Made by a program: the position numbers and the translations under genes. This document shows positions 2,206 to 32,801 of a stretch of DNA of 64,000 bases, one piece after another. The notes beneath the pieces are model-generated. The model had not been told where the DNA came from and ran no database searches. It saw only the letters and a list, made by a program, of their open reading frames with translations. Origin of the DNA: an uncultured Pseudomonadales bacterium (lineage in GTDB: Bacteria; Patescibacteriota; Microgenomatia; UBA1400; PJMF01); the NCBI GenBank assembly GCA_964393205.1, contig CAYMSV010000003.1:34608-98607 (forward strand), written 5' to 3'. The first letter of the stretch is position 1, and the number at the start of each line of letters is the position of its first letter.

Positions 2206-2298
2206 TAAAAATAATATTGTAGACCTTTTGTCTCAAGAATCAATCAATAGATGGGATGAGCTTGAAAATCAATTATTAGAAGCCTAGAATAGAACTAT

Positions 2299-4160: not shown

Positions 4161-4198
4161 AAGTCTTTTTAGTATAGCTTAAGTGATATAATAAGACC

Positions 4199-4915: not shown

Positions 4916-4936
4916 TTACAAAAGTTTTTAATACTT

Positions 4937-5686: not shown

Positions 5687-5778
5687 ATTACTATATTATA
5701 GCAGTCCTGTTTTTTTATTAATGTAATATTGATTGTTTGAACTTTTCTTGATAGGCTGATCAAATAATATCCAAAAAT

Positions 5779-6966: not shown

Positions 6967-6968
6967 AT

Positions 6969-7718
6969 ATGAGTATTCGTATCAATAAGTTGTTAGCAGA
7001 CCTTGGTTTAGCTTCTCGTCGTGGTGCTGATCTTTTAATTAGTGCTGGTAAGGTAAAAATTAATGGCAAGAAAGCTGAACTAGGAACTAAAGTAGATTTG
7101 AGTCGTGATCGATTGGTGGTTAACGGTGAATTGATTAATACAGAAACAGCTCAAGCAATTGTGGCTGGAGAAAATTTTGAATATTGGTTGCTCAATAAAC
7201 CCCCAGGAGTTATTTCTTCTGTTAGTGATCCTGCTGGTCGTAAAACTGTGATGCGATTTTTTACAAATAAAACTCAGGCTCGTTTATATCCAGTTGGACG
7301 CTTGGATTATGATTCAGAAGGCTTATTGTTAATGACTAATGATGGAGAATTAACTCACCGACTTACTCATCCTAAATATGGTATAGAAAAAGAATATTTG
7401 GTTGAAGCAAATGGTATTTTTAGTCAGGACAAAATAGCTAGATTAGAGCGAGGAGTTTTATTGTCTGGTAGGCGAGCTAGAGCGGACCAAGTTGAATTAA
7501 TTCAAAAAACTGGTCGGGATCTAGAGTTAAAATTTATTCTTCATGAGGGGCGCAAACGCGAGGTGAGAAGATTGTGTGCTAGGGTTGGTTGGGAGGTGCA
7601 GCGTCTAGTGAGGGTGCGTTTAGCCAATCTAGAATTAGGAACATTAAAACCAGGCATTGTACGCAAATTGAGTAATCAGGAAATTGCAGAATTAAAAAGC
7701 AGTGTCAAGTTAGTTTGA
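6969..7718 (+). CDS. rluB: rRNA pseudouridine synthase (RsuA/RluB family)
   Basis: N-terminal S4 domain (RINKLLADLGLASRRGADLLI), catalytic PVGRLDYDSEGLLLMTNDGEL. Confidence 0.85.
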   Translation: MSIRINKLLADLGLASRRGADLLISAGKVKINGKKAELGTKVDLSRDRLVVNGELINTETAQAIVAGENFEYWLLNKPPGVISSVSDPAGRKTVMRFFTNKTQARLYPVGRLDYDSEGLLLMTNDGELTHRLTHPKYGIEKEYLVEANGIFSQDKIARLERGVLLSGRRARADQVELIQKTGRDLELKFILHEGRKREVRRLCARVGWEVQRLVRVRLANLELGTLKPGIVRKLSNQEIAELKSSVKLV

Positions 7719-7728
7719 CTAGAAGTTT

Positions 7729-8157
7729 TTGGTGAATCAGGAAACAAAACTTAAGAAAAAAGCTTATAAATTTGACAAGGTAACGAAAGAATTAGCTGTT
7801 AAAAAGGCAAATTATCACTGCGAGTGTTGTGAAGCTAAACTCAACAAAAAGGATTCAAAAAAAGCAGAAGTGCATCATCTGTTGCCCGTTTGGGTAGTTT
7901 TTAATTGTTGTCCGGAAATGAGTGCTGACCTTATTCGAAATTTGGCAAATGCTGTAGTTTTGTGTCACGATTGTCATTGTTTTTTGCATCAAATAGAAAA
8001 TGGAGATGAAAATAAATTAGAAGTTTTTTATCAAGCTTTGATGGAAGAAATGCGTTGTTTAGATAGAAAATTTTTTAAAAATAACGGTAAGAAAAATTCA
8101 AACAAAGAGTTAATTAATTCTCTGAAAGTTAAAAAAATGCTGTACTTGCTCTATTGA
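7729..8157 (+). CDS. HNH-motif endonuclease-like small protein
   Basis: Cys/His cluster YHCECC...VHHLLP...LCHDCHCFLH. Confidence 0.45.
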   Translation: MVNQETKLKKKAYKFDKVTKELAVKKANYHCECCEAKLNKKDSKKAEVHHLLPVWVVFNCCPEMSADLIRNLANAVVLCHDCHCFLHQIENGDENKLEVFYQALMEEMRCLDRKFFKNNGKKNSNKELINSLKVKKMLYLLY

Positions 8158-8183
8158 AAGAAGAAATTTAAAATTCCACTATA

Positions 8184-8831
8184 ATGGAAATAATGCAATC
8201 TAATTTTACACACTTAATTTTTGATTTTGATGGTACTTTGGTTGACACTAGAGAAATTTATGTTTTGGCCTTTAATAAAATTCACGCTCGTTTTGATTTG
8301 CCAAAAATCAACAAGAAGGATTGGACCAGGTTCCAATCGAGTAGTATGAAAGATCTTTGTCGAGAATATGATATTGGTCCAGTGAAATTATTGAAAATTG
8401 CTAAAACTATTAATAGAGAAACTAGACTTTTAATAACTAAGGCTAAGTTTTATCCAAATATTGAAAAAATTTTACTTAAATTAAAAAAAGATTATCAGCT
8501 CGGGATTTTAAGTTCGAATGAGTTGAGTAACATCAAGGCGTTTTTTAAGCAACAAAATTTACCTTTAAAAGAAGTTTTTTCTTTTTGGCGCTGTGAAAAA
8601 AACTTATTTGGTAAAGATCGGGCTCTTAAGTCTTTAATTAAAGAATATCAGCTTGATCCAAAAACAATTCTTTATTTTGGCGATCAAGTTCGTGATATTG
8701 AAGCTTGTCAACGTGCTGGGGTTCCGGTTGCAGCGGTAAGTTGGGGTTTTGCGAGTGAAGATTTATTGGCCAGTGCTCAGCCCAATTTTTTACTTAATAG
8801 TCCAAGTGAGATTTTAGATCTATTGTATTGA
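8184..8831 (+). CDS. HAD-superfamily hydrolase (phosphoglycolate phosphatase-like)
   Basis: DxDGT motif (LIFDFDGTLVDT), C-terminal GDxxxD (YFGDQVRDIEA). Confidence 0.7.
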   Translation: MEIMQSNFTHLIFDFDGTLVDTREIYVLAFNKIHARFDLPKINKKDWTRFQSSSMKDLCREYDIGPVKLLKIAKTINRETRLLITKAKFYPNIEKILLKLKKDYQLGILSSNELSNIKAFFKQQNLPLKEVFSFWRCEKNLFGKDRALKSLIKEYQLDPKTILYFGDQVRDIEACQRAGVPVAAVSWGFASEDLLASAQPNFLLNSPSEILDLLY

Positions 8832-8901
8832 GTCAAATACTGTGCTCTGTTAATTTTACTCTCAAAAGAGTATAATCTATCTTTTGATTTTAGAAAGATT
8901 T

Positions 8902-10755
8902 ATGCAAATTCGTAATGTAGCGATCATCGCTCACGTTGATCACGGAAAAACTACTTTAATTGATGGGATGCTCAAACAGACCCATGCTTTTCGTGAAAAT
9001 CAGGCCGAGATGGAACAAGAAACCATACTTGATAGTAATGATTTAGAGCGAGAAAAAGGCATTACCATTTTAGCTAAAAATACCTCTATTCACTATCAGA
9101 GTTTAGCGGGTGAAAAGATAAAAATTAATATTATTGATACTCCAGGCCACGCAGACTTTGCAGGTGAAGTAGAGCGAGTGATCAGCATGGCTGATGGTGC
9201 CATTTTATTGGTTGATGCTGCTGAGGGGCCACTACCCCAAACCAAATTTGTTTTGGAGCAGGCCATTGAGCAAAAACTACCCATGATTGTTTTGATTAAC
9301 AAAATTGATCGTCAAGATGCTGAACCAGAAAAAGTTTTGGCTCAAGTTGAAGAACTATTTTTAAGTTTAGCAGACAACGCTGCCCAATTAGATTTTCCAG
9401 TTTTATATTCTGTTGGTAGGATAGGAAAAATTTGGCCAACACTGCCCGTTCAAGAACTAGGACAAACAGAAGCTTTAGCCAAAAAAACAGGCGACTTGAG
9501 ACCTTTATTTGAAGAAATCGTGCGCAGTATTCCAGCTCCTCAAACTAAGCCAGAAGCAGCTTTTAAAATGCAAGTATCAACCTTAGATTTTGATTCATAT
9601 AAAGGTATTTATGCCATTGGTAAGGTTACTCAGGGTTTAGTTAAGCGAGGTCAGCGTTTAGTAATTTTACAAGAACAAGAAAAAGTTGGTGAAATGACAG
9701 TGGCTCATTTACTGGAAAGTGACGGTTTAGACAAGGTAGAAATCGAACAATCTCGTCCTGGAGACATTATTGCCATCACTGGTTTAGATAAAATTGCTAT
9801 TGGTCAAACTTTAGCAGCTCTGGGTGAAACTGAGGGTTTCCCGATGATTAAAATTACTGAACCAACTCTTAAAATTCAAATTTCAGCCAATACTTCTCCA
9901 TTTGTTGGTAAAGAAAGTGAATTTTGTACAGTTCGTCAGTTAGCAGATCGTCTTAAGCGTGAACAAAAAACCAACTTAGGTTTGCGTATTGAACAGAAGG
10001 AGGGTGGAGTTTTTGTAGTAGCTGGGCGTGGAGAATTGCATTTATCTATTTTGATTGAGACCATGCGGCGAGAAGGTTATGAAATGGAGGTTGGTCGTCC
10101 TCAGGTGATTTTTAAAGAAATTGATGGAGTCAAACAAGAACCAATTGAGGAATTAATGGTTGAGATAGATCAAGCTTATGTGGGAGTAATTACTGAAGAG
10201 TTGGGTAAACGTCACGCTCAATTACAAGCGAGCTCTACTAGTCATAAGGGAGTTAGTCGAATGACTTACCATATTAGTAGCCGCAATCTTTTAGGATTTC
10301 GGACAGAGATTTTAACCAAAACCAAGGGCAATGGTTTATTCACTAGTTCTTTTTTGAAATATGCACCACTTCAAGGTAATAAGTTGAGGTTAAGAAATGG
10401 AGCTTTGATTGCTACTGAAGCTGGGATGGTAACAGCTTATGCATTAGAGAGTGTGCAACAGCGAGGTAAAACCTTTGTTAACCCTGGTGATCAAGTTTAT
10501 GAAGGACAGATAGTTGGTTTGTGTAAACAAAAGGGTGACTTAGATGTCAATGTTTGTAAAAGTAAAAAGCTAACTAATTTCCGCTCAAATGCTGACGTGA
10601 TGACGGTGCTTAATGCTCGAGTCGATTTAAGTCTCGAACAATGCTTAGATTTTATTGAGAATGATGAATTGCTCGAAGTTACTCCAGAAAATTTACGTTT
10701 ACGAAAACGCTACTTAAGTAAATTAGTTCGTAATAAAAAAACTCGTCCCCAATAA
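8902..10755 (+). CDS. typA: Translational GTPase TypA/BipA
   Basis: IRNVAIIAHVDHGKTTL, DTPGHADF, NKIDR; EF-G-like domain order; ATG at 8902 preferred over track TTG at 8884. Confidence 0.9.
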   Translation: MQIRNVAIIAHVDHGKTTLIDGMLKQTHAFRENQAEMEQETILDSNDLEREKGITILAKNTSIHYQSLAGEKIKINIIDTPGHADFAGEVERVISMADGAILLVDAAEGPLPQTKFVLEQAIEQKLPMIVLINKIDRQDAEPEKVLAQVEELFLSLADNAAQLDFPVLYSVGRIGKIWPTLPVQELGQTEALAKKTGDLRPLFEEIVRSIPAPQTKPEAAFKMQVSTLDFDSYKGIYAIGKVTQGLVKRGQRLVILQEQEKVGEMTVAHLLESDGLDKVEIEQSRPGDIIAITGLDKIAIGQTLAALGETEGFPMIKITEPTLKIQISANTSPFVGKESEFCTVRQLADRLKREQKTNLGLRIEQKEGGVFVVAGRGELHLSILIETMRREGYEMEVGRPQVIFKEIDGVKQEPIEELMVEIDQAYVGVITEELGKRHAQLQASSTSHKGVSRMTYHISSRNLLGFRTEILTKTKGNGLFTSSFLKYAPLQGNKLRLRNGALIATEAGMVTAYALESVQQRGKTFVNPGDQVYEGQIVGLCKQKGDLDVNVCKSKKLTNFRSNADVMTVLNARVDLSLEQCLDFIENDELLEVTPENLRLRKRYLSKLVRNKKTRPQ

Positions 10756-16685: not shown

Positions 16686-18368
16686 ATGGAGCAAGATTCA
16701 AGCTACACCAAAGTTTCTACTTATGAGGGACGCAAGGGGATGGTTAAAAAAGTGGTGCTTTTGTATTCTGGTGGACTTGATACTTCAGTGATGCTGCGTT
16801 GGATTAAAGAAGAATATGGGGCTCAGGTGGTAGCTTTGACTATAGATATTGGTCAACAAGCTGACGATTTAGAAGAAATGCGTAAAAAAGCATTGAAAAT
16901 TGGTGCGGTCAAAGCAATTGTCATTGATGCTAAAAAAGAATTTGCCTATCACTATCTCGCTAAGGGTATTAAGGCTAATGCTAGTTATCAGGGCAAATAT
17001 CATTTAAGCACCCCTTTAGGTCGACCTTTACTAGCAAAATTAGCAGTCGAAGTAGCTCGCGCCGAGGGTTGTGACACTATCGCTCATGGTTGCACTGGCA
17101 AAGGCAATGATCAAGTTCGATTGGAGGGCACTATTTTAACCCTAGCTCCAGAAATGAAAATAATTGCTCCAGTTAGAGAATGGAGTATGGGCCGTGATGA
17201 AGAATTAGCCTATGCTAAAAAACACAAAATACCGGTTAAACAAACCAAGGACAAACCTTATTCTTATGATGATAATATGTGGGGAGTAACCATTGAAAGT
17301 GGTGAGATTGAAAATCCAGCTCTTATTCCTCCTTTAGACAAAATTCTTCAAGTGAGTCGGGTTATTGAAAAAACCCCAGATAAACCAAAATATATCAAAC
17401 TAACTTTTGTTAGAGGTCTACCAACTAAAATTGATGATAAAACCATGAATTTAGTAGAGATTATTCGATTTTTAAATCAAATGGGTGGCAAGCATGGGGT
17501 TGGAGTAACTCATCATATTGAAGATCGATTGGTAGGATTGAAAGTGCGAGGTATTTATGAAGCGCCGGCAGCAGAAATTATTATTAACGCCCATCTTAAT
17601 TTGGAAAAATATGTCTGTACCCGTCGAGAAAATGAATTTAAAAATGAAATTGACAATAAGTGGGCTTATCTCTGTTATGGGGCACTTTGGTATGAGCCAC
17701 TGATGGAGAGTTTAAATGCTTTTATTAATCAAGTTAATGATAAGGTGAGTGGGACAGTAACAGTTAAGTTGTTTAAAGGGATAGCTGAAGTAGTGGCAGT
17801 TGAAACTGCTAATAGCATTTTCGATGAAAAACTAGCTACTTTTATGAAGAACGATGCTTACAATCAAAACGCTTCTCCAGGTTTTATTGAGATTTATACT
17901 CTACAGATGCGTTTAGCTCAAAACAAACATCGCTATGCGCTGCTAACTATTGGAGAAGACAAAAATAAAAAAGCCTTTTTACCTTATGTAAAAATTTTAG
18001 CCAAACTCGGTTATAACTTCTATGCAACGGAAAATACGCATAAGTTTTATAAAAAACACGGTATTGAATCAGTTTTTATTTATAAGATGCATCAGAAAAA
18101 ATATCCTAACCTAGAGGAATTATTGCAACAAAATTTCTTTGATTTAATTATTCATGCTCCTTATAAAAATAAACCAGAGAATGCTAAAGATGAAGAAGTG
18201 ATCAGAAAATGGACAGTTAAGCACAGCATTCCCGTTGTTAATGATGCTAGAGTATTTAAGGTTTTAACCGATAAATTACAAAAACACATCGTTGCCGTTA
18301 AAAAGGAACAAAAAGATGAAGAAAAAGCAAAATTGGAATTTGAAAAATCTCGTTCTAGAAAAAATTAA
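16686..18368 (+). CDS. argG: Argininosuccinate synthase fused to a C-terminal MGS-like domain
   Basis: N-terminal VVLLYSGGLDTSVMLRWI PP-loop and ArgG core (~400 aa); C-terminal ~150 aa (LLTIGEDKNKKAFLPYVKILAKLGYNFYATENTHKFYKKHGIESVFIY...) resembles methylglyoxal-synthase-like allosteric domain of CarB. Confidence 0.8.
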   Translation: MEQDSSYTKVSTYEGRKGMVKKVVLLYSGGLDTSVMLRWIKEEYGAQVVALTIDIGQQADDLEEMRKKALKIGAVKAIVIDAKKEFAYHYLAKGIKANASYQGKYHLSTPLGRPLLAKLAVEVARAEGCDTIAHGCTGKGNDQVRLEGTILTLAPEMKIIAPVREWSMGRDEELAYAKKHKIPVKQTKDKPYSYDDNMWGVTIESGEIENPALIPPLDKILQVSRVIEKTPDKPKYIKLTFVRGLPTKIDDKTMNLVEIIRFLNQMGGKHGVGVTHHIEDRLVGLKVRGIYEAPAAEIIINAHLNLEKYVCTRRENEFKNEIDNKWAYLCYGALWYEPLMESLNAFINQVNDKVSGTVTVKLFKGIAEVVAVETANSIFDEKLATFMKNDAYNQNASPGFIEIYTLQMRLAQNKHRYALLTIGEDKNKKAFLPYVKILAKLGYNFYATENTHKFYKKHGIESVFIYKMHQKKYPNLEELLQQNFFDLIIHAPYKNKPENAKDEEVIRKWTVKHSIPVVNDARVFKVLTDKLQKHIVAVKKEQKDEEKAKLEFEKSRSRKN

Positions 18369-19296
18369 AAAACAGGGTGGTTGGGTTAATACTCACAGTC
18401 ATTTAGATAGAGCTTATACCATTACCCCTGAATCTTTAAAACTAGGTGATGAGCATTTGCATAAAAAATGGGGGCTAGTTGATGAGCTTAAAAAAAGTTC
18501 CAGTGTTAAACAAATCTACGATAGAATGGCTTTTGCTTTGGAAAGACAGTTAGAGCAAGGAGTAACCGTCTTGGCTAGTTTTATTGATGTTGATGAGGTA
18601 GTAAAAGATAAAGCCATGAAAGCGGCTCAAAAATTGAAGGAAAATTATCAAAAAGATTTAAAATTAGTTTTTATTAACCAAGCACTGAAGGGAGTTTTAA
18701 ATCCTAAAGCTAGATTTTGGTTTGAAGAAGCACTGAGCTTTGTAGACATTATTGGTGGCTTGCCAGGTAAAGATGCTGGTCAAGAAACTAAGCACCTAGA
18801 TATTTTATTTAGTTTGGCTAAAAAACACGACAAAATGGTTCATGTCCATGTCGATCAACTCAATACTCCTCAAGAAAAAGAAACTGAGTTGTTGATTAAA
18901 AAAACTCAAGAACATGCTTTGCAAGGAAAAGTGGTTGCTGTTCATTCCGTTTCTTTGGCTGCTCAGAAAGCCAAATATCGACAAAAAATTTATCAAGAAA
19001 TGCAAAAAAACCAGTTAATGGTGATAGTTTGTCCCTCAGCTTGGATAGATAGTCGACGCTCAGAAGAATTGGCGGTGACTCATAACGCCATTGCTCCAGT
19101 TGAGGAGTTGCTTGAAGCCAAAATTCCAGTAGCCCTTGGTACAGATAATATTGCTGATATTTACAAACCCTTTACAGATGGGGAGATGTGGATAGAACTG
19201 CGTTTTTTGCTAGAGACTTGTCATTTTTATGATATTAAACAACTAGCAAACATTGCTACTATAAATGGTAGAAAAGCTCTTGGTCTAAGCACTTGA
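18292..19296 (+). CDS. Amidohydrolase-superfamily metal-dependent hydrolase (deaminase-like)
   Basis: NTHSHLD (HxH), VHVHVD, AVHSVSL, LGTDNIAD metal-ligand pattern; true start uncertain (overlaps argG 3' end). Confidence 0.55.
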   Translation: MPLKRNKKMKKKQNWNLKNLVLEKIKKQGGWVNTHSHLDRAYTITPESLKLGDEHLHKKWGLVDELKKSSSVKQIYDRMAFALERQLEQGVTVLASFIDVDEVVKDKAMKAAQKLKENYQKDLKLVFINQALKGVLNPKARFWFEEALSFVDIIGGLPGKDAGQETKHLDILFSLAKKHDKMVHVHVDQLNTPQEKETELLIKKTQEHALQGKVVAVHSVSLAAQKAKYRQKIYQEMQKNQLMVIVCPSAWIDSRRSEELAVTHNAIAPVEELLEAKIPVALGTDNIADIYKPFTDGEMWIELRFLLETCHFYDIKQLANIATINGRKALGLST

Positions 19297-20348: not shown

Positions 20349-20480
20349 GCCTTAATTCTATACTATTTAGTCAAGAAAGATAATTCAAAGAAAATAAAAC
20401 ATTTACTTTCTATACTGTCCCATTTGTCTCATTTTGAGTATAATTAACTCTAGAAAGGTGTAGGTGGCTATGGGACACCC

Positions 20481-20510
20481 TGGTTCCAGACCCACCTGCT
20501 CCGCAATAAT
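20481..20510 (+). repeat. Direct repeat R1 (candidate att core)
   Basis: Shares GTTCCAG(A/G)CCCAnnTGCTCCGC(C)A with 31917-31949 and 32769-32801. Confidence 0.6.
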
Positions 20511-20611: not shown

Positions 20612-21442
20612 ATGATTTCTTTACTTATATTGATATATAATCTGAATCATATGAGCGATCCCAATAAGTCTGATCATAAGAAAAATGTTTCTGAATTAAT
20701 TTCTGCTGGATCAGAAATAGTGGGAGCTGGAATTGGAGGTGTTACTGGATTTTTATTTGCTGGACCAGTGGGCGCAGCTGGTGCTGGAATTGGGGGAGTC
20801 ATAGTTGCAAAAACATTGAATAAAGTCGGCCAAGAAATATCAACCAGGCTTTTATCACCTAGAGAAAAAGTAAGAGTGGGAGGAGTTATGGCTCTTTCCA
20901 CACTAGAAATAGAAAAGAGAATCTCAGAAGGAGAGACCATACGCTCTGATGGTTTTTTTGATACCAATCCCAATGGAAGATCCAATGCTGATGAAGTTGT
21001 AGAAAGTGTTCTACTCAAAAGTCAAAGAGAACCTGAAGAAAAAAAACTTCCCTATCTTGCTCATTTATATGCAAATATTGCATTCAGCGAAGAAATCAGC
21101 ACCCCAATGGCTCATCAACTTATAAAAGGTGTTAACCAACTAACATATAGACAGCTATGCATTTTAAGATTGTGTGCAATGAAAAAAATCCCACTCAGAG
21201 AAAAAGACTACAGAGAAGAGTCTTCTTTCCCAAAAGAACTTTATCAAGTTTTATATGAATGTTTTGACTTATCCTCAAAAGGATACATAAATAATGGAAG
21301 CACAATTGCTCTTGGGCTAACTGATTTAATCCCAAAAGAAATGACTCCTCAAGCATTAGGAGCTGACATTCATAATTTCTTACAACTTTGGAATATTCCC
21401 ATGGAAGACCTCCAACCGATTATAGATCAATTAAAACAATAA
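20612..21442 (+). CDS. Hypothetical protein with N-terminal glycine-zipper membrane segment
   Basis: GAGIGGVTGFLFAGPVGAAGAGIGGVIVA then soluble domain. Confidence 0.4.
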   Translation: MISLLILIYNLNHMSDPNKSDHKKNVSELISAGSEIVGAGIGGVTGFLFAGPVGAAGAGIGGVIVAKTLNKVGQEISTRLLSPREKVRVGGVMALSTLEIEKRISEGETIRSDGFFDTNPNGRSNADEVVESVLLKSQREPEEKKLPYLAHLYANIAFSEEISTPMAHQLIKGVNQLTYRQLCILRLCAMKKIPLREKDYREESSFPKELYQVLYECFDLSSKGYINNGSTIALGLTDLIPKEMTPQALGADIHNFLQLWNIPMEDLQPIIDQLKQ

Positions 21443-22726
21443 CTGTTTATTCTTAAGTATAAATTTAGTTTTTATCATCCCCAACGCTTCCTGCCTATCA
21501 TCTGCTGATCCAGTTTTAAGTACATGTTTTAGATAGTTTATTGCCATCCCTTCATCATTAATTTTAACTGCTGAATTTTCCATTTCTTCCAAATTCCCAG
21601 ACAAATATTCTTGGTGTAAAACTTCTGATCTTAGTTTATGGAATCTCTCTATATCTGCCTTAAGTTTTTTAGCAATTTTAGTCTTAACTATTTTTATATT
21701 TCCAGCATTAATGTGAGCCAAAAGTTGGCTTATCAAATCTTCCTCAGTGATATAAGGTTCATCACAATCATAATTAACTGATCTGCCACAATGATAGTAA
21801 ATGTATTTCCCATAACCCCCATATTTAAGTTTTTTGTATTTAACTTCTGCTGTAACACCTCCACCACATGATCCACAAGTACAAAGTGTTTTAAATGGAA
21901 ATTTCTTTTTATGCCAATTCTTTGGTGGCACTTGAAGTTGCTTTTGTACTTTATCCCACAATTCTTTACTGACTAAAGGTTCATGAATTCCTTTGTACCA
22001 TTCATCTCCATATTTAAACTCACCATAATAAAATGGATTTTTTAGAGTTGAATAAATTTTGCTTAAAGCCAATATCTTTCCTCTCTTTGTTTCGAACCCA
22101 ATTTCTTTAAACCATTTTCTGATTGTTCTACCACTATGTCCTTTTACAGCTACCCGTGTAAACATTTCCTTAATAACCCATGCTCTTTCAGGATCAGGTA
22201 TAACTTCACTGATTCTATTATTTTTCAAAATATTTAAATATCCAATTGGAGCTAACCCAGGTCTAATACCCATTTCACATTTAGCTTTAAGTCCTCGCTT
22301 AACATTAATCCCTCTATTATCATTTTCTAACTTCGCTTGTGAACAAAGAATCATTAATAGAAACTTTTCATTTGGATTATTTCTAAATATCTGAGATTTT
22401 GTTTTAATCTCTTGAAGCTTTCCTTGATCCATTAGATCCACCAAAGATCCTAAATCACCTGCATTACGACTTAATCTGTCAGGGGCCCAAGTAAGAATCC
22501 CATCAAAAACCCCTTTATCAATATCTTTTAAGAGTTTAATAAAAACTGGCCTTGTTCCTGATCTTTTAGCAGAATGACTCTCTTGTCTAATTTCAGTAAC
22601 ATTTAGTTGTTCACTTTCAGCTATTATCCTCATCTCTTTAATTTGAGAATCAATTGACATTGTTTGTCGTTCATCAGATTCAGAAGATTTTCTTGCGTAG
22701 AGACAATATTTTATATTTTTTTGCAT
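21431..22726 (-). CDS. Large serine recombinase (integrase/resolvase family)
   Basis: N-terminal resolvase catalytic domain YARKSS...S..Q, recombinase domain, C-terminal zinc ribbon CTCGSCGG...YYHCGR. Confidence 0.85.
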   Translation of the reverse strand: MQKNIKYCLYARKSSESDERQTMSIDSQIKEMRIIAESEQLNVTEIRQESHSAKRSGTRPVFIKLLKDIDKGVFDGILTWAPDRLSRNAGDLGSLVDLMDQGKLQEIKTKSQIFRNNPNEKFLLMILCSQAKLENDNRGINVKRGLKAKCEMGIRPGLAPIGYLNILKNNRISEVIPDPERAWVIKEMFTRVAVKGHSGRTIRKWFKEIGFETKRGKILALSKIYSTLKNPFYYGEFKYGDEWYKGIHEPLVSKELWDKVQKQLQVPPKNWHKKKFPFKTLCTCGSCGGGVTAEVKYKKLKYGGYGKYIYYHCGRSVNYDCDEPYITEEDLISQLLAHINAGNIKIVKTKIAKKLKADIERFHKLRSEVLHQEYLSGNLEEMENSAVKINDEGMAINYLKHVLKTGSADDRQEALGMIKTKFILKNKQLLF

Positions 22727-23048: not shown

Positions 23049-24479
23049 CTATAAAAAATCAATAATTGGCACTTCTTCCTCCTTTAAGTCTTCTAAAAAC
23101 TCATAAACTAATTGAGAAAATGAATCTGCTAAATCATCATATTTTTCACTTCCAAAATACAAAATTTGATTAATTAATTCTTCTGCTCCTTTTTTAGGAA
23201 ATCTAACCTTTCCATTTTTGATCTGATAAGAAGCTGATGATAATCTTTCTCTTTTATCACGACCTCCTGTTGTCAAACCTCTAACTGGTAAACCTTCTCT
23301 CTCCATACTTTGAATTAACCCTGCCTGCTGACCCGCTTCTTCAACAACAATTTCAACTGGAGCTAAATCTTTTAAAGAAAAAAACATTACTTTAACTTCT
23401 TCAATTAAATCAGGCATTCTTATTCGTTTATTTGTTGGAAACGGATGAATATATATTTTAGCTGACTTTCCTTTACCAACAACTGAACCAACAGTAATGG
23501 CTACATTATCTCCAGTACTTTTTTGACTAAAAGCAGGATCAATACTAATAATAATTCTAGAAACATTTCTTTCAGGTAATTCATCATAAAACTGTAGCCA
23601 TTCTTCTTTAACAATTTGCTCGTCATCAGCAATAATCTTCAACATATATTCTCTTTGAAAATCAGTATTAGTTACTTTGTTTTTTAATCTAACGATTGAG
23701 ACTTCATCTGGATATTTACCAAACCATAAACTCTTGCCTTCTAATAAGAGAGAGTACTCTCTATATTCACCATCAAAAGTTCCTCCCAAAATAGATCTTT
23801 TCATTCTCATCATTACTGAATCGTTATGAACCAAGTTCCCAATCATTACTACTTTGGTATTTTTATCTCCAGATGGAATTAATTCTGAATTCAAAAATTC
23901 CCAAGCCTTCTTTCTCCCTTCAGCTGTTTTTGCAGAAGCAACATCTTCAATATCATCAGCCACAATTAAATCAGGTCTAAACTGACGATGACGAAAACCT
24001 CTAATTTTTTCAGATATAGAAACGGCTGTAATACGAGCCTGTTGTTTAGTAAAAACCAAACTAGAACTACTCCATTCAGCAAGATCCTTTGGAAATGGAC
24101 CAAAATCATTTATCAAAAGCTGATTATTTTCACACTCCTGTCTAATGTTATCCAAAGCCTGTTGAGCTCTTGTCTGTGTTTGATTAACTAACACTACAAA
24201 ATTCTTTTCCTTACGACTTAAGATCATCCATAAAGGATAAATAAGCTGACAATAAGTAGACTTGGCACTTCCACGAAAAGCTACAATCACTAAAAATCTA
24301 ACAGCATCATTTTGTAAAAGCTGTAGCATCTCTTTATGAAAATCTGCTATTTCATATTCAATATAATGTGGGAAGTAAATCACAAAAAACCAAAGAATAT
24401 CCTGCTTTGCCAGCTTCTTTCTGAGTTTTTTATTTTTCCTAACTTCTAAAATTAATTCTTGTGTAATTTTTTCTTTCAT
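23049..24479 (-). CDS. terL: Phage terminase large subunit
   Basis: N-terminal ATPase (VIVAFRGSAKST Walker A-like, DDIED), C-terminal RNase-H-like nuclease (ISIDPAFS). Confidence 0.8.
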   Translation of the reverse strand: MKEKITQELILEVRKNKKLRKKLAKQDILWFFVIYFPHYIEYEIADFHKEMLQLLQNDAVRFLVIVAFRGSAKSTYCQLIYPLWMILSRKEKNFVVLVNQTQTRAQQALDNIRQECENNQLLINDFGPFPKDLAEWSSSSLVFTKQQARITAVSISEKIRGFRHRQFRPDLIVADDIEDVASAKTAEGRKKAWEFLNSELIPSGDKNTKVVMIGNLVHNDSVMMRMKRSILGGTFDGEYREYSLLLEGKSLWFGKYPDEVSIVRLKNKVTNTDFQREYMLKIIADDEQIVKEEWLQFYDELPERNVSRIIISIDPAFSQKSTGDNVAITVGSVVGKGKSAKIYIHPFPTNKRIRMPDLIEEVKVMFFSLKDLAPVEIVVEEAGQQAGLIQSMEREGLPVRGLTTGGRDKRERLSSASYQIKNGKVRFPKKGAEELINQILYFGSEKYDDLADSFSQLVYEFLEDLKEEEVPIIDFL

Positions 24480-24480
24480 T

Positions 24481-24891
24481 TCAATCCTTACTGCTCATTA
24501 AACTGAGTGCTTTTTTATAAATTTCTTTTTCTTCTTCAGTTAATTCTTCTGACTCCTCTGATTCATGAAAAAGTTTGACCCTATTCTCATAAGCCTGTCT
24601 GTGATGCTTTAACCAAAAGATTATGGCAGTCATATTTTCATCTCGTATTTGATTTATTAATTGAGACTCTGCCATATCAGATATTAGCTCTGTTCCTTCT
24701 TGTAAAGCTTTATTAGCTTCCTTAGAAAATTCAGGGTCATCCTTCCTCCAACGATAGTAGGTTGCCCTGGATATTCCTGCTTTTTTACAAGCTATTTGAA
24801 TTATTGGATTCACTTTTAATTTATCGATAATAAGTTTCTTATCATTAATAATCCTTTCCTCAATTGGAGTTAATACTTTTGTATTTGTCAT
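24481..24891 (-). CDS. HTH DNA-binding protein, probable terminase small subunit
   Basis: HTH (ACKKAGISRATYYRWRKDDPEF); position immediately upstream of terL with 1-nt gap. Confidence 0.45.
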   Translation of the reverse strand: MTNTKVLTPIEERIINDKKLIIDKLKVNPIIQIACKKAGISRATYYRWRKDDPEFSKEANKALQEGTELISDMAESQLINQIRDENMTAIIFWLKHHRQAYENRVKLFHESEESEELTEEEKEIYKKALSLMSSKD

Positions 24892-26210
24892 TGAATTAGC
24901 TTTGCTTTTTTACCTGTTAACTTTTCCCAACGATTCTTAATAACTTCTGCATAAATTGGAGATTTTTCCATGATGTTGCATCTTCTCTTCATCTTTTGAG
25001 AAGCGATTAAAGTACTACCACTACCACCAAATGGCTCTACAACTAAATCTCCACGCCTGGTTAAAACTTTAAGATAAGGGATTAAAATCTCAATTGGTTT
25101 TGTACCAAAAATAATTCCTTGTCCCGATTGTTTCTCATCACAAGCTTTAAATTCAATGAAATCAGTCGGTTGGATTTTCTTACCCTTGTTGTAACCTTCC
25201 CAGTGAGGCTTCCCGTTAATTGCAAACAAAGCCGTTTCATATTCATTCTGCAAAAGGTTATCTGATTCTGAATCTAAATCTAACTGTTTGCTTTCTGAGC
25301 TCCCAACCATAGCAATATCATGCTTTGAAAAAAACTTGTGTTGAGAAGCAAATCCTTGATGCCTATTTGGTAAATGCCAAACCAACATATTACGAACTTT
25401 CCAATGTCTTTCCATTTCTCCCCAAATAGTTCTGATGTTTTTCCAATTTTCATAAACAATAATACTAAAATCATCTTTGGCTATTTTAGAAATATTCCCC
25501 ATCCACTTTTCGGTGAAATCTGGTGGTAGAACGTCTGTCTCAAGATATTTTCTATTTTTCTTAGCCCCAAATCCTTCAGTTGGTTTTCCATGTCTTTTAG
25601 CTTTTAGATAATCAAGAATGTAGGGAGGATCAGTCAGACACATATCTGCTTTTTCTTTATTCATTAATTTAAGAAAATCAGCTTCAATTGTTGAGTCTCC
25701 ACACATTAACTTGTTTTCACCCAGCTGCCAAACATCACCTTTTTTAATTTTGATTTCATCTATTTTTAATTTCTGGAGTTCTTTCTCAAGATCAAAATCT
25801 TCTGGATTATCTTCTGTTAGAAAAACTTCATCTATCTCTTCACTAGAAAATCCAACATCAGAAAGAAAAGCCTCATCAAACTCAGCCAATAAATCAAAGT
25901 CCCAGTCACCAGTATTTTTATTAAGCCTTAGATTGAGTTCTTTTTCTTTTTTAATCTCTGGAAGATTGATGAAAACCACAGGAACTTCTTTAAATCCCAA
26001 ATCCTTTAAAACTTTTAAGCGAAAATGGCCTCCTATAACTATATTCTTTCTACCTGGAGCTGAGTTAACTAAGAGTGGATCAACAACTCCAAAACGCGAG
26101 ATGCTTTCTTTAAGATCATTGCTAGCTTCTTCACTCCAAGTTCTTGGGTTATATGGAGCTGGATTTAACTCTGATACTTTAATTTCTACTATATTCAGTT
26201 TATTTTTCAT
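24888..26210 (-). CDS. ParB-like nuclease domain fused to N6-adenine/N4-cytosine DNA methyltransferase
   Basis: N-terminal ParB motif (VSELNPAPYNPR), DPPY catalytic motif (CLTDPPYILD), AdoMet motif FGGSGST. Confidence 0.8.
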   Translation of the reverse strand: MKNKLNIVEIKVSELNPAPYNPRTWSEEASNDLKESISRFGVVDPLLVNSAPGRKNIVIGGHFRLKVLKDLGFKEVPVVFINLPEIKKEKELNLRLNKNTGDWDFDLLAEFDEAFLSDVGFSSEEIDEVFLTEDNPEDFDLEKELQKLKIDEIKIKKGDVWQLGENKLMCGDSTIEADFLKLMNKEKADMCLTDPPYILDYLKAKRHGKPTEGFGAKKNRKYLETDVLPPDFTEKWMGNISKIAKDDFSIIVYENWKNIRTIWGEMERHWKVRNMLVWHLPNRHQGFASQHKFFSKHDIAMVGSSESKQLDLDSESDNLLQNEYETALFAINGKPHWEGYNKGKKIQPTDFIEFKACDEKQSGQGIIFGTKPIEILIPYLKVLTRRGDLVVEPFGGSGSTLIASQKMKRRCNIMEKSPIYAEVIKNRWEKLTGKKAKLIQ

Positions 26211-26812: not shown

Positions 26813-26921
26813 ATTCCCCTTCTATAAATGCTATTTATTAACATCATTTTATCTGTATGTCTGTGAAAATGCTAGTTATAAACTGTAGAGTCGACAACAT
26901 CATTTCATTAATCTGATATTA

Positions 26922-27152
26922 ATGAAACAAACACACAAACCAAATACAAACTTGAGAAGGAAATTTGGGAAAAGAGTTAGACAATTAAGAGATGATTTGG
27001 GATATTCACAAGAAGAACTAGGATTCAAAGCTGACCTACATAGAACTTACATTGGCTCGATAGAACGAGGAGAACAAAATGTATCTTTGGATAATATAGG
27101 AAAATTAGCTAAAGTTCTCAAGACCTCTCTTTCAGATCTTTTTGATCTATAA
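26922..27152 (+). CDS. XRE-family HTH transcriptional regulator (Cro/CI-like)
   Basis: RVRQLRDDLGYSQEELGFKADLHRTYIGSIERGEQNVSLDNIGKLAKVL. Confidence 0.8.
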   Translation: MKQTHKPNTNLRRKFGKRVRQLRDDLGYSQEELGFKADLHRTYIGSIERGEQNVSLDNIGKLAKVLKTSLSDLFDL

Positions 27153-27193: not shown

Positions 27194-28075
27194 ATGATTG
27201 ATATACAGGTAGTTCGTGCAGTCAAAAAACAACTTGAAGAAGCCTCATCTGTTATAAAAGCAATGAAGGAAGTAAATGATTCTTATTCAAAGCAACTTAG
27301 AGCCATCTCCGAAACTATAATTAATTTCAACAAACAAGCAAAAAAAATAATATCAGAACTACCAAACCTTGATCTTTTTTTAGGGTTTGATCAGGCAGGG
27401 CTAACCCCTAATTTGGGAAAAAGTAAATCAATTCATAATGTTAAAAAGTTTATTTCAAACCTCGATAAAGGGTATGCTATTTTTTGGATTCCTAGAGCTG
27501 ATATCGTTGATGAAATTGTATTTGCTGATACCAGTAAACAGAAAAAGGAAATAATTATAGAAAACCAAAAGCTAATTCTCTCTGATTGTTTAAAAGTGGT
27601 AAAAACAATAAAAAATAATAAATTAAAAAATCATGCTGATCATTTAATGTCAGCTATTACTTGCATGGAACATGGAAATTTTAGAGCTGCTCAATCAACT
27701 GCAACAATTTGTCTTGACTCATTGATTGATGAATTAGTTGACCTAAGTGATCTAGATTCATTTAGGAAAATAAATAACAAATTAAATAAGACTGCAAATG
27801 TTTTGACAGATATTGATAAAATTCCAATTAACTATCTCTATGCTGCTCTGCAATCCAGATTAATAATCTATTTATTCCGACCATTTGACAGATTAAATCC
27901 GAATAAAATATCACATAAGTATGCAAGACACTCTAGCACTCATTCTGTTAGCAAAAGACAATATAAACCATTTAATGCCATGCAAGCTATTATGATTGCA
28001 ACATCACTACTAGCAACTACCAATAAATTAGGAAGTAACTGGTTATCAAAATTAGCATCGTATAATTCTGTATAA
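27194..28075 (+). CDS. Hypothetical protein (293 aa), unknown function
   Basis: ORF only; first gene of 4-gene unknown cassette. Confidence 0.35.
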   Translation: MIDIQVVRAVKKQLEEASSVIKAMKEVNDSYSKQLRAISETIINFNKQAKKIISELPNLDLFLGFDQAGLTPNLGKSKSIHNVKKFISNLDKGYAIFWIPRADIVDEIVFADTSKQKKEIIIENQKLILSDCLKVVKTIKNNKLKNHADHLMSAITCMEHGNFRAAQSTATICLDSLIDELVDLSDLDSFRKINNKLNKTANVLTDIDKIPINYLYAALQSRLIIYLFRPFDRLNPNKISHKYARHSSTHSVSKRQYKPFNAMQAIMIATSLLATTNKLGSNWLSKLASYNSV

Positions 28076-28089
28076 ATTACTAAACTGAA

Positions 28090-29187
28090 ATGGAAAATAG
28101 ATATCTTAAACCTAAACAATACTATATTGACCTCTACGATTTATTCACCATAAAAGAATGCCTAGATTGGTATTGGAAACTAAAAGAAGGCATGGAAAAA
28201 CACCGTGATGAACTAAAAGAAAAAGAACCTAAAACAGATTTTGATCATGAAGTTCACAAATGTTGCAGCTATGCAGTTAATGTAATAAAAGGCGAAAGAT
28301 ATCGTAGAAAGGCAGAAACCATTCAAAAATGGATAGATAAAGATAAAAAAAACCAAGACATCTTTGATAAAGCCACTCCCCACTCAGATATTCTCTGCAA
28401 AAAATGTGGAGGTAAGACCAAAATAATCCATAAAACTTTACATAGTGAAGATGAAAACAATCCAAGAATTTCTTTCATGTTTGAGTGTAAGAAATGTAAC
28501 AAAAGACAAATTTTTTATAGTGATGGTTCTCCTTGGGATTTTGAAAGGGAAAAGTGTCCTGACTGTGGAATTGAACTTAAAACAGAGTACGAAGATGATG
28601 AAAAAAATGAAATATTAATTACAACTGATTACTGTCTCAAATGTGATTATAAGAAAGTTGATGTAACTAATTTCAAAAAGAATCGGGAAGAACGAGAAGA
28701 AGAAAAACAAAAAGATGAGGCTTTACTAAAAGAATATCGTGATGAGTTTTGCTGGAATGACAAAGATGGCCAACAATATATAAGCACAATGGAAACTCTA
28801 AAAAACTTATACGAAGAAGCTGAACAACAAAAGAAAAAAGAAAAAGATCCAAATTACCAAAAAACTAAAAAACTAAAGAAACTTAAAATCAATCAACTAA
28901 AAGAACTACTTTCAGAAAAGTTAAATAAGCAAAAATATATTGATCTTCAATTTGGGAAACCAGAAATTGGAAAGTATGTTGTAGTAGATTTTACTGTTAA
29001 TGACACAAACAATGATCGATCTGAATATGATAGTAATAAACAATTAAAAAAACTAATACAGAATACATTAATCAAAACAAATTGGAGATTAATGAGTGAC
29101 GGGATTAGTTATCGCATAGGAATCTTAAGTGGAAGACTTAAGGCTTATGAAAGAGATGATGATTTAATGAAAATTATTAAAAATTAA
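28090..29187 (+). CDS. Hypothetical protein with four CxxC zinc-ribbon pairs and K/E-rich coiled-coil
   Basis: CKKCGG...CKKCNK...CPDCG...CLKCDY. Confidence 0.4.
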   Translation: MENRYLKPKQYYIDLYDLFTIKECLDWYWKLKEGMEKHRDELKEKEPKTDFDHEVHKCCSYAVNVIKGERYRRKAETIQKWIDKDKKNQDIFDKATPHSDILCKKCGGKTKIIHKTLHSEDENNPRISFMFECKKCNKRQIFYSDGSPWDFEREKCPDCGIELKTEYEDDEKNEILITTDYCLKCDYKKVDVTNFKKNREEREEEKQKDEALLKEYRDEFCWNDKDGQQYISTMETLKNLYEEAEQQKKKEKDPNYQKTKKLKKLKINQLKELLSEKLNKQKYIDLQFGKPEIGKYVVVDFTVNDTNNDRSEYDSNKQLKKLIQNTLIKTNWRLMSDGISYRIGILSGRLKAYERDDDLMKIIKN

Positions 29188-29207
29188 TTATTAATATAGA
29201 CAAAAAT

Positions 29208-30587
29208 ATGATAAAAAATAGTTCAAATTTAAAAAAATTATTGCAAAAATTCAAAGAATCTGGTTTTGAATTAATACAATCTAAAGATAAATCATATTTC
29301 TACATAAAAAATGAAAAAGAAGAAGCAAAAATACTAGAAATTAAAGATAGTGAATATATATTACATCTTTTGAAGATAGAGGAAAACAATTCTATTATTT
29401 ATCAAAAGGGTTTTAAATATTTAATTTCTGAAAAGGATTTTGATTTATTATCGATTTTGTACTTCAAAGAAAAAAAATATCAACTATCAGCTGGATGGCA
29501 ATTCAGAAGAATAAATAATCTTGGAGAGGATATTGAAAAATTAATTATTAAACAAAAATATAAACAAAAAAGAATTAACAAAAAAGGTAAAAGTCTAACA
29601 ATTTCTCCAAATATATACTCACTTATCCTTAAAGATATATGGCGTGCTGAAGATAAATCAAGAAAATATAAATCATCAGTACGAAATTATCTTTTAAATG
29701 ACCTAACTGGAGAATACTCTTCAAAAAAAATTAAAGATACTACTTCATTAAACAAAGGTGAATATGAATTCATAACACATAGATTTAATTTAAAAACAAA
29801 AAATAAACGTAAAGACTATCTTAAATACTTAAACAAAAATGACATCAATTCTCTACAATATTTATTTCTAAAAATGGTTAAAAATAAAGTTTTTGATGAC
29901 AAATATTTAAAGAAACTAAATAACTTTTTCAAAAAAGAAAATCTTAGAGAAATCATAAGTCTAGGAAATGAGATATTAAGTTTAGGTGTTACAGATTTAA
30001 GTACAAAAAAAGCAAAAGCCACAGTAAAAAAAATTACTGAAAAAAAAGTTGCAAAGCTTGAAGGTCTTTGGCAAGAATATTTTGAACAATATTTGTTATT
30101 ATTAATATTTTCTTACAAATCAATTCATCCAAAAATCAAACTAAATAATATTGATTCAGATAAAAACTATCCAGATTTCATTGGAATAAATCATTATAAT
30201 GGCTTAGATGTTATAGAGATAAAAACTCATTTAAAAAAAGCACTAACTTATGATTCGAGTCACGATAATTTTAGTTTTTCCTCTGAATTGAGCAAAGCTA
30301 TTATACAAACAACAAATTACATGGATCAAATAGTTGCAGAAAATTTCAAGAAAAGTTCTGATAAAACAAAAATAACTTCATCAATTCATGAAGAAAATTT
30401 ACATAGACCTAGAGGAATAATCATTATCTCATCTTATGAACATCTAACAACTGACATGTCATCAAGAAATAAGGATAAACTAACTAGAGATTTCACCAAA
30501 CTTAGAAATAGTCTACATAATATACAAATTCTAACCTTTGATGAAATACTTAATACAGCAAGTGACTATCTAGATAATGTTGTATAA
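29208..30587 (+). CDS. Hypothetical protein with C-terminal PD-(D/E)xK nuclease-like motif (Shedu/DUF4263-like candidate)
   Basis: C-terminal NYPDFIGINHYNGLDVIEIKTHLKK...AIIQTTNY resembles D...(D/E)xK...Q restriction-endonuclease fold. Confidence 0.35.
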   Translation: MIKNSSNLKKLLQKFKESGFELIQSKDKSYFYIKNEKEEAKILEIKDSEYILHLLKIEENNSIIYQKGFKYLISEKDFDLLSILYFKEKKYQLSAGWQFRRINNLGEDIEKLIIKQKYKQKRINKKGKSLTISPNIYSLILKDIWRAEDKSRKYKSSVRNYLLNDLTGEYSSKKIKDTTSLNKGEYEFITHRFNLKTKNKRKDYLKYLNKNDINSLQYLFLKMVKNKVFDDKYLKKLNNFFKKENLREIISLGNEILSLGVTDLSTKKAKATVKKITEKKVAKLEGLWQEYFEQYLLLLIFSYKSIHPKIKLNNIDSDKNYPDFIGINHYNGLDVIEIKTHLKKALTYDSSHDNFSFSSELSKAIIQTTNYMDQIVAENFKKSSDKTKITSSIHEENLHRPRGIIIISSYEHLTTDMSSRNKDKLTRDFTKLRNSLHNIQILTFDEILNTASDYLDNVV

Positions 30588-30611
30588 ATAAACTATATAA
30601 AATATATATTT

Positions 30612-30794
30612 ATGATAAAACCAATAAAAGTTGATGCACTGAATATGACAAATCATGCATATTTTGAATGCAAAAATTGCAATCTAAAAAGTGAGATGTT
30701 CTTAAAAAATAAAATTAGTGTTGATGAGAAAAATGATACTCAATATTTAAATACAATGCCATGTCCTAATTGCAATAAAAAGCTTGGCAAATAG
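30612..30794 (+). CDS. Small zinc-ribbon protein (60 aa)
   Basis: CKNCN...CPNCNKK. Confidence 0.3.
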   Translation: MIKPIKVDALNMTNHAYFECKNCNLKSEMFLKNKISVDEKNDTQYLNTMPCPNCNKKLGK

Positions 30795-30811: not shown

Positions 30812-31681
30812 TTAATTTAAATCTTCTGGTAAGAGGCTATCAATATGCCACTCATCATTAAATAAAGCAGAATTATTTTCATTAATTCTTGAAATATCTC
30901 TATCTCCATAACTATCTTTAGTTTTTTCAAAACGACTAATTCCAAAATTAATTGCTAAAACTTCGGCAGATTTTGCTGTATTTGATAACCCAAGTTTTAT
31001 TAACTCCTCAGAACTAATCCACAAATAATATTCATGAAATTGATTTTTTTCACCAAATTGATTTGTAACCCAGAAACCACCTTGCTTACTCTTAAAACGC
31101 AAGCTAACTCGCCATGCCTTTTGAGAACTAGAGTAAGGACATGAATGTTCTGCCACTATCATGAGTCCTGGAATTAATATTTTTGAATACTTTTCTTCCC
31201 ACCAATCAGGATTTTCTATTAAACAAAATTGTTCATTTACCATTTCAAATGTAAATCTCTCTCCATCGCTAGGATTGCTACTATCAATTGTTTCTTTGAT
31301 TTTTTCTATGGCTAACTTTTCAATTTCTTCCTTTTTTAAATGATGGGAATTTAGTATGGAGATAAAAAAGATAAAACCAATAAAATCATCTTCACTTTTT
31401 TTAACAATAAATCTTGCCATTCTTTCAAAACTAGCACTTAGAGTGACAACTCCTTTCAAATCCCAATAAATTTTATAACCATGATGATTAATAGGAGTAT
31501 CATATTCCCCTAATTTTTTATTTTCCAAAAAATTCAATATTACTTTTAATTCATACCTTCGATCACCTCTGTCATTAACTCTTACAGAATTTAAAGTCCC
31601 ATTTCTATCCCAACGTCTTAAAGTTTCAGGGTGAATATTTAACATTTCTGCTGCTTCACTTATGGTAAGTAAGTTTTTCAT
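30812..31681 (-). CDS. Excisionase/MerR-family HTH protein with C-terminal unknown domain
   Basis: LTISEAAEMLNIHPETLRRWDRNGTLNSVRVNDRGDRRYE (HTH_17 excisionase-type). Confidence 0.55.
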   Translation of the reverse strand: MKNLLTISEAAEMLNIHPETLRRWDRNGTLNSVRVNDRGDRRYELKVILNFLENKKLGEYDTPINHHGYKIYWDLKGVVTLSASFERMARFIVKKSEDDFIGFIFFISILNSHHLKKEEIEKLAIEKIKETIDSSNPSDGERFTFEMVNEQFCLIENPDWWEEKYSKILIPGLMIVAEHSCPYSSSQKAWRVSLRFKSKQGGFWVTNQFGEKNQFHEYYLWISSEELIKLGLSNTAKSAEVLAINFGISRFEKTKDSYGDRDISRINENNSALFNDEWHIDSLLPEDLN

Positions 31682-31790
31682 AACTTATACTAAGTTATAC
31701 TTAATTAAACAAAATGTCAAGAGATAAAAAAGCACAACATTTTTTTAAACTGTCTCATTTGTCTTGTTTCTGTTATAAACATAATTAGAG

Positions 31791-31896
31791 GTCTCTATAG
31801 TTCAATGGATAGAATAGAGTCTTGCTTAAGATCATAAGCTTATCAGTTTGTGTTTTTAACAAGACTAAGATGGTGGTTCAATTCCACCTAGAGATA
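31791..31896 (+). tRNA. tRNA-like gene with aberrant 50-nt anticodon region (pseudo-tRNA or insertion/intron-containing tRNA)
   Basis: Acceptor GTCTCTA/TAGAGAT (G1-U72), D-arm TAGTTCAATGGATAGAAT, T-arm GGTGGTTCAATTCCACC; 7-bp stem AGTCTTG/CAAGACT encloses 35 nt. Confidence 0.4.
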
Positions 31897-31916
31897 CAAA
31901 TGTTATAACGATATAT

Positions 31917-31949
31917 GAGTTCCAGACCCATATGCTCCGCCATTTTAAT
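31917..31949 (+). repeat. Direct repeat R2 (candidate att core)
   Basis: See R1. Confidence 0.6.
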
Positions 31950-32748: not shown

Positions 32749-32768
32749 AAGGGAACTGTGGTTCCAGG

Positions 32769-32801
32769 CCCAGATGCTCCGCCATTAAAATATTACTTAA
32801 C
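32769..32801 (+). repeat. Direct repeat R3 (third copy of att-like core)
   Basis: TGGTTCCAGGCCCAGATGCTCCGCCATTAAAAT. Confidence 0.6.

Follow-up and report, generated by a model that had tools for sequence, protein, structure and literature searches.

A Shedu nuclease and its zinc-ribbon neighbour among the probable cargo of a satellite-like island in a Patescibacteria-type genome

We describe four consecutive genes, g1 to g4, between positions 27194 and 30794 of a 64,000-nt stretch of contig CAYMSV010000003.1 (assembly GCA_964393205.1), called the window in the following. The original prediction considered them a possible novel four-gene defence module on a prophage and could name no defence system with confidence. 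We arrived at a different description, which we hold to be fairly probable: the interval would be the cargo arm of a satellite-like island of ~11.4 kb in a Patescibacteria-type genome and would carry three independently distributed modules, namely a Shedu pair (g3 and g4), a HEPN-like gene (g1) and a separate gene, g2. A system can be named after all, as g3 scored above the Pfam and PADLOC thresholds for Shedu. The novelty of a four-gene module did not stand, since most relatives of any one gene are found apart from the other three.

The nuclease g3 and the small protein g4

Gene g3 (29208-30587, plus strand) encodes a protein of 459 aa which, judged by its sequence, is a member of the Shedu family, SduA, agreeing with every hallmark of membership that was tested. 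Pfam SduA_C (PF14082) matched aa 285-448 over profile positions 4-159 of 159 with 72.8 bits (gathering cut-off 27; E 4.7e-20), and nine PADLOC SduA models matched as well, the best one at 6.2e-16. P322-D323, E337-I-K339 and Q367 were invariant in 37 of 37 family members aligned at 41-75% identity. A Shedu/DUF4263-type PD-(D/E)xK nuclease had been suggested for this gene from the same D...E-I-K...Q pattern, with non-conservation of the D/E/K residues named as the observation that would speak against it; the profile thresholds and the alignment both bore the suggestion out. In Bacillus cereus Shedu, D249 and E264 are needed for defence (10.1101/2023.08.10.552793). By their spacing, D323 and the ExK of g3 would correspond to the motif II Asp and the motif III Glu-x-Lys of the B. 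cereus protein. The N-terminal ~280 residues of g3 showed no Pfam family match, and searches of PDB chains with the sequence and with the family profile (phmmer, hmmsearch) retrieved no Shedu structure. With the g3 family too distant for a PDB sequence search, its assignment to Shedu is based on the Pfam and PADLOC matches.

Shedu is normally a single-gene system (Gu et al., bioRxiv 10.1101/2023.08.10.552793), and the g3 family, with more than 289 homologues, appears to share this stand-alone occurrence. On genomic evidence, g1, g2 and g4 were missing beside the family members at L011 and L012; g3 relatives at 61% and 48% identity lacked these genes. The neighbourhood counts given here and below were obtained on at most 80 loci per scan, with simple open reading frame (ORF) calls made for this analysis. 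Among the 16 g3 loci having at least 2.5 kb on each side, the backbone of a mobile element was present in seven; g2 was adjacent in three and absent in 13. No match to g3 or to g2 was returned by tblastn against 50,697 phage genomes.

Gene g4 (30612-30794, plus strand) encodes a 60-aa protein with a C4 zinc ribbon, C20xxC23 ... C51xxC54, whose cysteines were kept in all four copies of the gene. The three independent homologues were 62-68% identical, and the ranges of nonsynonymous (pN 0.12-0.23) versus synonymous (pS 0.58-0.99) change among the four copies indicated purifying selection. Wherever g3 was at least 72% identical, which was the case in four independent contexts, g4 followed it directly on its 3' side at a distance of 6-24 nt (4 of 4). 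The flanking genes differed among these contexts, leaving g3 and g4 as the only invariant pair. In the window, the pair stands between g2 (365 aa) and a MerR-type gene; at L019/L103 the order is SIR2, a 959-aa gene, g2 (535 aa), g3, g4 and MerR; at L104, g2 (533 aa), g3, g4 and a gene for 303 aa follow a ParB-methyltransferase gene (ParB-MTase); and at L021, genes labelled RT, DUF2779, FtsKgamma and 104 aa precede g3 and g4, with an RHH gene behind them. A profile built from the four g4 sequences found no further g4 among 188 loci, including those with more distant g3 genes.

We also considered a conserved block of g3, g4 and the MerR-type gene and rejected it: the MerR gene accompanies g3 in only a small number of loci, and at L021 and L104 its position is taken by unrelated genes. 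MerR-type homologues of 45-47% identity were convergent to g3 in L019 and L113.

Taken together, g3 and g4 look like a lineage-specific two-gene variant of Shedu. A two-component system is known from E. coli, where KELShedu consists of KELA and KELB, KELA being small and binding dsDNA (PMC12577705). By analogy, g4 is presumably a nucleic-acid-binding or regulatory partner of g3.

The accompanying genes g1 and g2

Gene g1 (27194-28075, plus strand) encodes an all-helical protein of 293 aa. The original prediction had seen no recognisable motif in it. We found R245-x4-H250, invariant in 22 close relatives as well as in 30 members at 17-27% identity, which agrees with the Rx4-6H signature of HEPN proteins; beyond the 22 close homologues, the family counted ~1410 distant cluster representatives. 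An additional coiled coil stands at the N-terminus, and a region reading AGLTPNLG/GYAIFWxP is conserved as well. Neither g1 nor the 30 distant relatives gave a hit, to a curated HEPN family or to any other, in Pfam, NCBIfam, PHROG or PADLOC. We predict g1 to be a HEPN-type RNase acting as an effector of the abortive-infection or toxin type. The relatives examined were found in three kinds of context: with a serine recombinase, a ParB-methylase and a type I restriction-modification (R-M) system; in a conjugative element; and among genes without known function. All three were devoid of g2, g3 and g4, and from its distribution g1 is regarded as an independent cargo gene. With ~1400 cluster representatives and no curated model, this family, resident in defence islands of the candidate phyla radiation (CPR), is a candidate for follow-up.

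Gene g2 (28090-29187, plus strand; 365 aa) comprises a helical hairpin, a double zinc ribbon, a coiled coil and a ferredoxin-like (PilO/GspL-like) C-terminal domain. The four CxxC pairs and the coiled coil that had been recognised in it initially were both recovered, the former as cysteines conserved across the family alignment (C103/106, C133/136, C156/159 and C182 invariant, C185 in at least 90%), the latter as helices at residues 195-280 of the AlphaFold model. This AlphaFold2 (AF2) model contained no enzymatic domain, and mean column identity of the family was 58%. Scans of Pfam, PHROG and NCBIfam gave no match to Ogr_Delta or to any other family. In the PDB, profiles of g1 and g2 met only with coiled-coil noise and with Rpb9/TFIIS zinc ribbons, the latter weakly and without significance (E 0.05), and Foldseek of the g2 model against BFVD gave nothing at E ≤0.001. 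The assignment to ordinary phage structural or replication functions, named in the original prediction as the outcome that would count against it, did not result for any of the four proteins.

The g2 family comprises ~700 proteins, which match other proteins at domain level only. Viruses seldom carry it (in IMG/VR, 6 contigs out of 2.9 million), and it was found at 307 loci in reference genomes, nearly all of them of Patescibacteria. The best 80 of these 307 loci were scanned for neighbours. Neither g1 nor g4 was present at any of them; a single-sequence search found a g3-family gene at two, and a broader profile an SduA_C-like gene at four. The commonest neighbour family occurred in at most 13 of the 80. 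Tight co-directional neighbours were a mixed assortment of defence-type genes, encoding DUF5677, SF1 helicases, LexA-like peptidases, DUF4209, HamA, Mrr, SAVED, SMODS, HsdR, a caspase and a trypsin-like protease. A ParB-MTase gene lay upstream of g2 in 25 of ~60 adequately flanked loci, was divergent in 24 of these 25, and was separated from g2 by 0-8 variable genes.

Some further observations concern g2 itself. A long form of 533-541 aa has a C-terminal extension of ~170 aa with a further CxxC-rich segment (L019 4392-5999, L104 1648-3249, L075 7998-9623 and P0236); at L019/L103 and L104 it lies directly upstream of the closest g3 relatives. A trio made of a trypsin-like protease (363 aa), a g2 homologue and a DUF4209 protein (343 aa) is conserved in L005-L007 / L027-L028 (for instance L027 1488-4700), where it adjoins MmeI-type R-M, DUF4365 and DUF2779 genes. 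It was the sole context in which the partners of g2 repeated across several genomes. As a family of ~700 proteins without a curated model that resides in CPR defence islands, g2 is a follow-up candidate in its own right.

The host island and the organisation of the locus

Positions, common direction and gaps of 14-24 nt, as originally reported for the four ORFs, agreed exactly with the ORF list. An XRE-family helix-turn-helix (HTH) regulator gene precedes g1 (26922-27152, plus strand), and a MerR/excisionase-type HTH gene, convergent to g1-g4, follows g4 (30812-31681, minus strand; Pfam MerR, MerR_1 and HTH_17) as the rightmost gene of the island; its product has a C-terminal domain of ~230 aa without assigned function beside the HTH. 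The successive gaps from the XRE gene through g1, g2, g3 and g4 to the MerR gene are 41, 14, 20, 24 and 17 nt. A terminator scan of the locus gave no intrinsic-terminator-like site between the genes on the plus strand. G+C over 27-31 kb is 0.22-0.30, the minimum of the window, and a promoter scan of DNA so rich in A+T told little (43 sites, with 34 expected). We consider g1-g4 genuine genes because each ORF has homologues elsewhere and g4 shows low pN relative to pS. They are probably co-transcribed, with a single promoter region ahead of the XRE gene.

The XRE protein matched Pfam HTH_3 (1.1e-15) and, with aa 10-75, positions 4-70 of 77 of the PADLOC Control_protein profile PDLC03665 (1.2e-23). 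The region upstream of its gene contains one weak imperfect palindrome resembling a C-box, ACTGTAGAGT. No paired C-boxes were present, and among the downstream genes g1-g4 no restriction endonuclease family was matched in Pfam or PADLOC. The protein is a probable regulator of the downstream genes. Within 26813-26921, on the 5' side of the gene, two imperfect direct repeats (AAATGCTAnTTATnAAC twice and AACATCATTT twice) accompany the palindrome and are possible operators.

To the left of the XRE gene, the backbone of the island is encoded on the minus strand. It consists of a large serine recombinase, the island integrase (21431-22726; Pfam Resolvase, Recombinase and Zn_ribbon_recom; PHROG integrase, 2.8e-62), a TerL-like protein (23049-24479; PHROG 38, 2.1e-77), a TerS-like protein (24481-24891; PHROG 309, 3.2e-11; Pfam HTH_Tnp_1_2) and a fusion of ParB-N with a DNA methyltransferase, a backbone orphan methylase (24888-26210; Pfam ParB_N and N6_N4_Mtase; PHROG 498, 1.2e-82). 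Direct-repeat families D1 and D4 have copies ~11.4 kb apart (20.4-20.5 kb versus 31.7-31.9 kb), which we regard as candidate borders of the island. The left one (20407-20510) contains a 37-nt promoter-like repeat at 20407-20443 and the 24-nt motif GTTCCAGACCCAnnTGCTCCG(C)CA at 20483-20506; the right one (31742-31942) contains the promoter-like repeat, a tRNA-like gene (31791-31896) and a second copy of the motif (31919-31942). With the consensus GTTCCAGRCCCAnnTGCTCCG(C)CA, the motif occurs in three direct copies. The third copy (32761-32784) lies 842 bp to the right of the second, past two small genes (DUF3795 and DUF1801); a tandem insertion may have left it behind, or it may represent another att-like site. 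The tRNA-like gene, on the plus strand, matched the full Rfam tRNA model over 106 nt with 46.6 bits and was not called by ARAGORN; an insertion or intron of ~35 nt seems to interrupt a tRNA gene here, directly at the right end of the island.

None of the 13 ORFs between the candidate borders (~11.4 kb) encodes a virion structural protein according to Pfam and PHROGs. On its gene content, the host element is a satellite-like integrative island and not a complete prophage. The cargo slot of a prophage, as initially proposed, is retained insofar as g1-g4 lie in the accessory arm of an integrated mobile element with defence-type genes; a usual prophage is not, as ~11.4 kb without capsid, portal and tail genes do not make one. 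By analogy to satellites, induction by a helper phage and packaging might be expected of the island.

Similar mini-elements of CPR genomes, with a large serine recombinase, TerL, TerS, a ParB-methylase, few defence-type cargo genes and no virion genes, were seen in dozens of unrelated metagenome-assembled genomes (loci L023-L102 and L103-L182, e.g. L075 916-9623, L114 and L187). At L075 the element (916-9623) has six genes, for the serine recombinase, TerL, TerS, ParB-MTase, HamA and g2, and ends in g2, followed by housekeeping genes. This recurrent mini-element looks like an undescribed satellite-like vehicle that moves defence cargo between the reduced CPR genomes. At L019/L103 (552-4408), a SIR2_2 gene (326 aa) and the gene of a 959-aa protein without Pfam match take the place of g1 and the XRE gene, and may be another two-gene defence module. 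Outside of the island, the window contains an argininosuccinate synthase with an added C-terminal MGS-like domain (16686-18368, plus strand; domain at aa 432-518), whose gene runs 77 nt into the start of the ORF behind it, which encodes an amidohydrolase (18292-19296).

Alternative explanations and relation to known systems

If g1-g4, the XRE gene included or not, formed one new multi-gene defence system, their common direction, tight spacing and lack of terminator-like sites between them would be readily understood. The five-gene block is indeed unchanged on at least 16 contigs. These are, however, copies of the same island, and the recurrence of the four-gene order in related genomes, proposed at the outset as a check, goes no further than such copies: the four genes were together at no other locus, and g1 was elsewhere never with g2, g3 or g4. 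Where the block has its closest relatives, the SIR2 and 959-aa genes (L019) or nothing at all (L104) stand in for g1 and the XRE gene. This explanation, already disfavoured, appears very improbable to us. A three-component Shedu of g2, g3 and g4, in which g2 senses or binds nucleic acid and gates SduA and g1 is a bystander, is unlikely. It would account for g2 being immediately upstream of g3, at distances of 1-20 nt, in the window (20 nt) and in L019/L103, L104 and L133 (1-3 nt in L019, L104 and L133) despite deep divergence of both proteins, and it gains from the order g3 then g2 in L115, L119 and L179 and from SduA_C genes of other subfamilies at most three genes away from g2 (L042, L051, L055 and L073; also L089). 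Yet the two families mostly live apart, with a Shedu-type gene near g2 in at most 4-9 of 80 loci and g2 missing from most g3 loci, as given above. Their order varies, L021 retains g3 and g4 without g2, and the junctions of g2 are equally tight with dozens of unrelated defence genes. Frequent adjacency of g2 and g3 is expected anyway, as the two are carried by one family of elements and this alone predicts it. Beside g3, moreover, copies of g2 were 38-41% identical versus 46-75% for g3; that g2 diverged far more than the adjoining g3 speaks against a joint inheritance of the two. We give even less credence to g2 as a new, widespread CPR family of sensors or adaptors with interchangeable effectors (Shedu, trypsin-like protease plus DUF4209, SIR2, HamA and others). 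If true, g2, g3 and g4 of the window would make up a Shedu variant of three parts, and their neighbour g1 would stand for a new family of HEPN effectors.

More tenable, if on balance doubtful, is g2 as a backbone function of the mobile element, with its variable neighbours being hotspot insertions; it might, for instance, activate transcription through its zinc fingers or regulate how the element is excised, replicated or packaged. The Ogr/Delta zinc-finger activators of P2 and P4 have a role comparable to the one that g2 would then have. Such a function would suit the position of g2 as first rightward gene opposite the ParB-MTase/TerS/TerL operon in L049, L062 and L104 (0-8 variable genes intervene elsewhere) and as last gene of the six-gene element in L075, together with its AF2 model free of enzymatic domains and a mean column identity that is unusually high for a defence gene. 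The same backbone nevertheless occurs without g2 in many elements (L114, L125, L129, L132, L144 and L152), and more than half of the g2 loci have no backbone gene within 8 kb but R-M, Hachiman, CBASS-like and other defence genes as neighbours. The lack of an Ogr_Delta or other family match and the rarity of g2 on viral contigs point in the same direction. Most likely, g2 binds nucleic acid as a regulator or sensor working by itself and is not a subunit of Shedu.

We favour the island with three separate cargo modules; any of g1-g4 may be active against phages. In B. cereus Shedu, the tetramer is kept inactive by the N-terminal domain, the motif II aspartate being out of place; on activation the site becomes complete and double-strand cleavage can proceed (10.1101/2023.08.10.552793). 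The catalytic core of g3 is the same, behind a different N-terminal region; as in characterised Shedu, g3 would be a PD-(D/E)xK DNase autoinhibited by that region, cutting DNA once an infection cue lifts the block. By analogy with KELA of KELShedu, g4 may bind nucleic acid or tune the activation of Shedu. An RNase of the abortive-infection or toxin type would be provided by g1, and the controller-like XRE protein would plausibly limit expression of these potentially toxic genes after transfer. A regulator or sensor binding nucleic acid would be provided by g2, either as a stand-alone gene of defence islands or in a function of the element. Overall, the locus combines a known system with uncharacterised neighbours; it is an entry for the catalogue and a source of candidates, and neither overturns current understanding nor represents a new kind of system.

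Several parts of the locus can be compared with what is known. The XRE protein resembles the controller (C) proteins of R-M systems in a nearly full-length profile match and in the position of its gene ahead of potentially toxic genes, but g1-g4 instead of a restriction endonuclease follow, and there is one palindrome only. HEPN RNases of defence and toxin systems (Csm6, AbiV, LsoA/RnlA and HEPN-MNT toxins) differ from g1 in that the latter matches no HEPN model and has no identified cognate antitoxin or sensor. The island is akin to the defence hotspots of phage satellites and prophages (P4-like satellites and phage-inducible chromosomal islands, PICIs) as a small integrative element with its own packaging genes, no virion genes and a variable defence slot. 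Its backbone of large serine recombinase, TerL, TerS and ParB-methylase and its host lineage set it apart from the described satellite families.

The closest parallel is Shedu, for example the Type 1 protein (with N-terminal domain) of Bacillus cereus B4264. Like g3, it carries the nuclease at the C-terminus behind a long non-catalytic N-terminal region, and the C-terminal DUF4263 PD-(D/E)xK domain with motif II aspartate and motif III ExK is common to both. Many Shedu genes are reported on mobile elements amid defence genes, which is the setting of g3 too. Unlike known Shedu, g3 has 280 N-terminal residues without a Pfam match, is distant by sequence from the solved structures, belongs to a CPR/Patescibacteria host lineage and is followed, in this clade, by a conserved 60-aa zinc-ribbon gene. 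Shedu is commonly regarded as a one-gene system; experiments have so far described a single two-gene variant. In this variant, KELShedu, as in the pair of g3 and g4, a DUF4263 nuclease is encoded bicistronically together with a small protein that is not an enzyme and, for g4, is a putative partner. Compared by description, KELA is a dsDNA-binding protein of 12.6 kDa encoded upstream of the nuclease, whereas g4 is a C4 zinc ribbon of 60 aa encoded downstream. A downstream zinc-ribbon gene is not among the arrangements reported in 10.1101/2023.08.10.552793 or PMC12577705, and the pair of g3 and g4 would thus be new as a Shedu arrangement. A zinc ribbon as a second kind of small partner, in a barely studied lineage, would add to the ways in which a Shedu nuclease is regulated.

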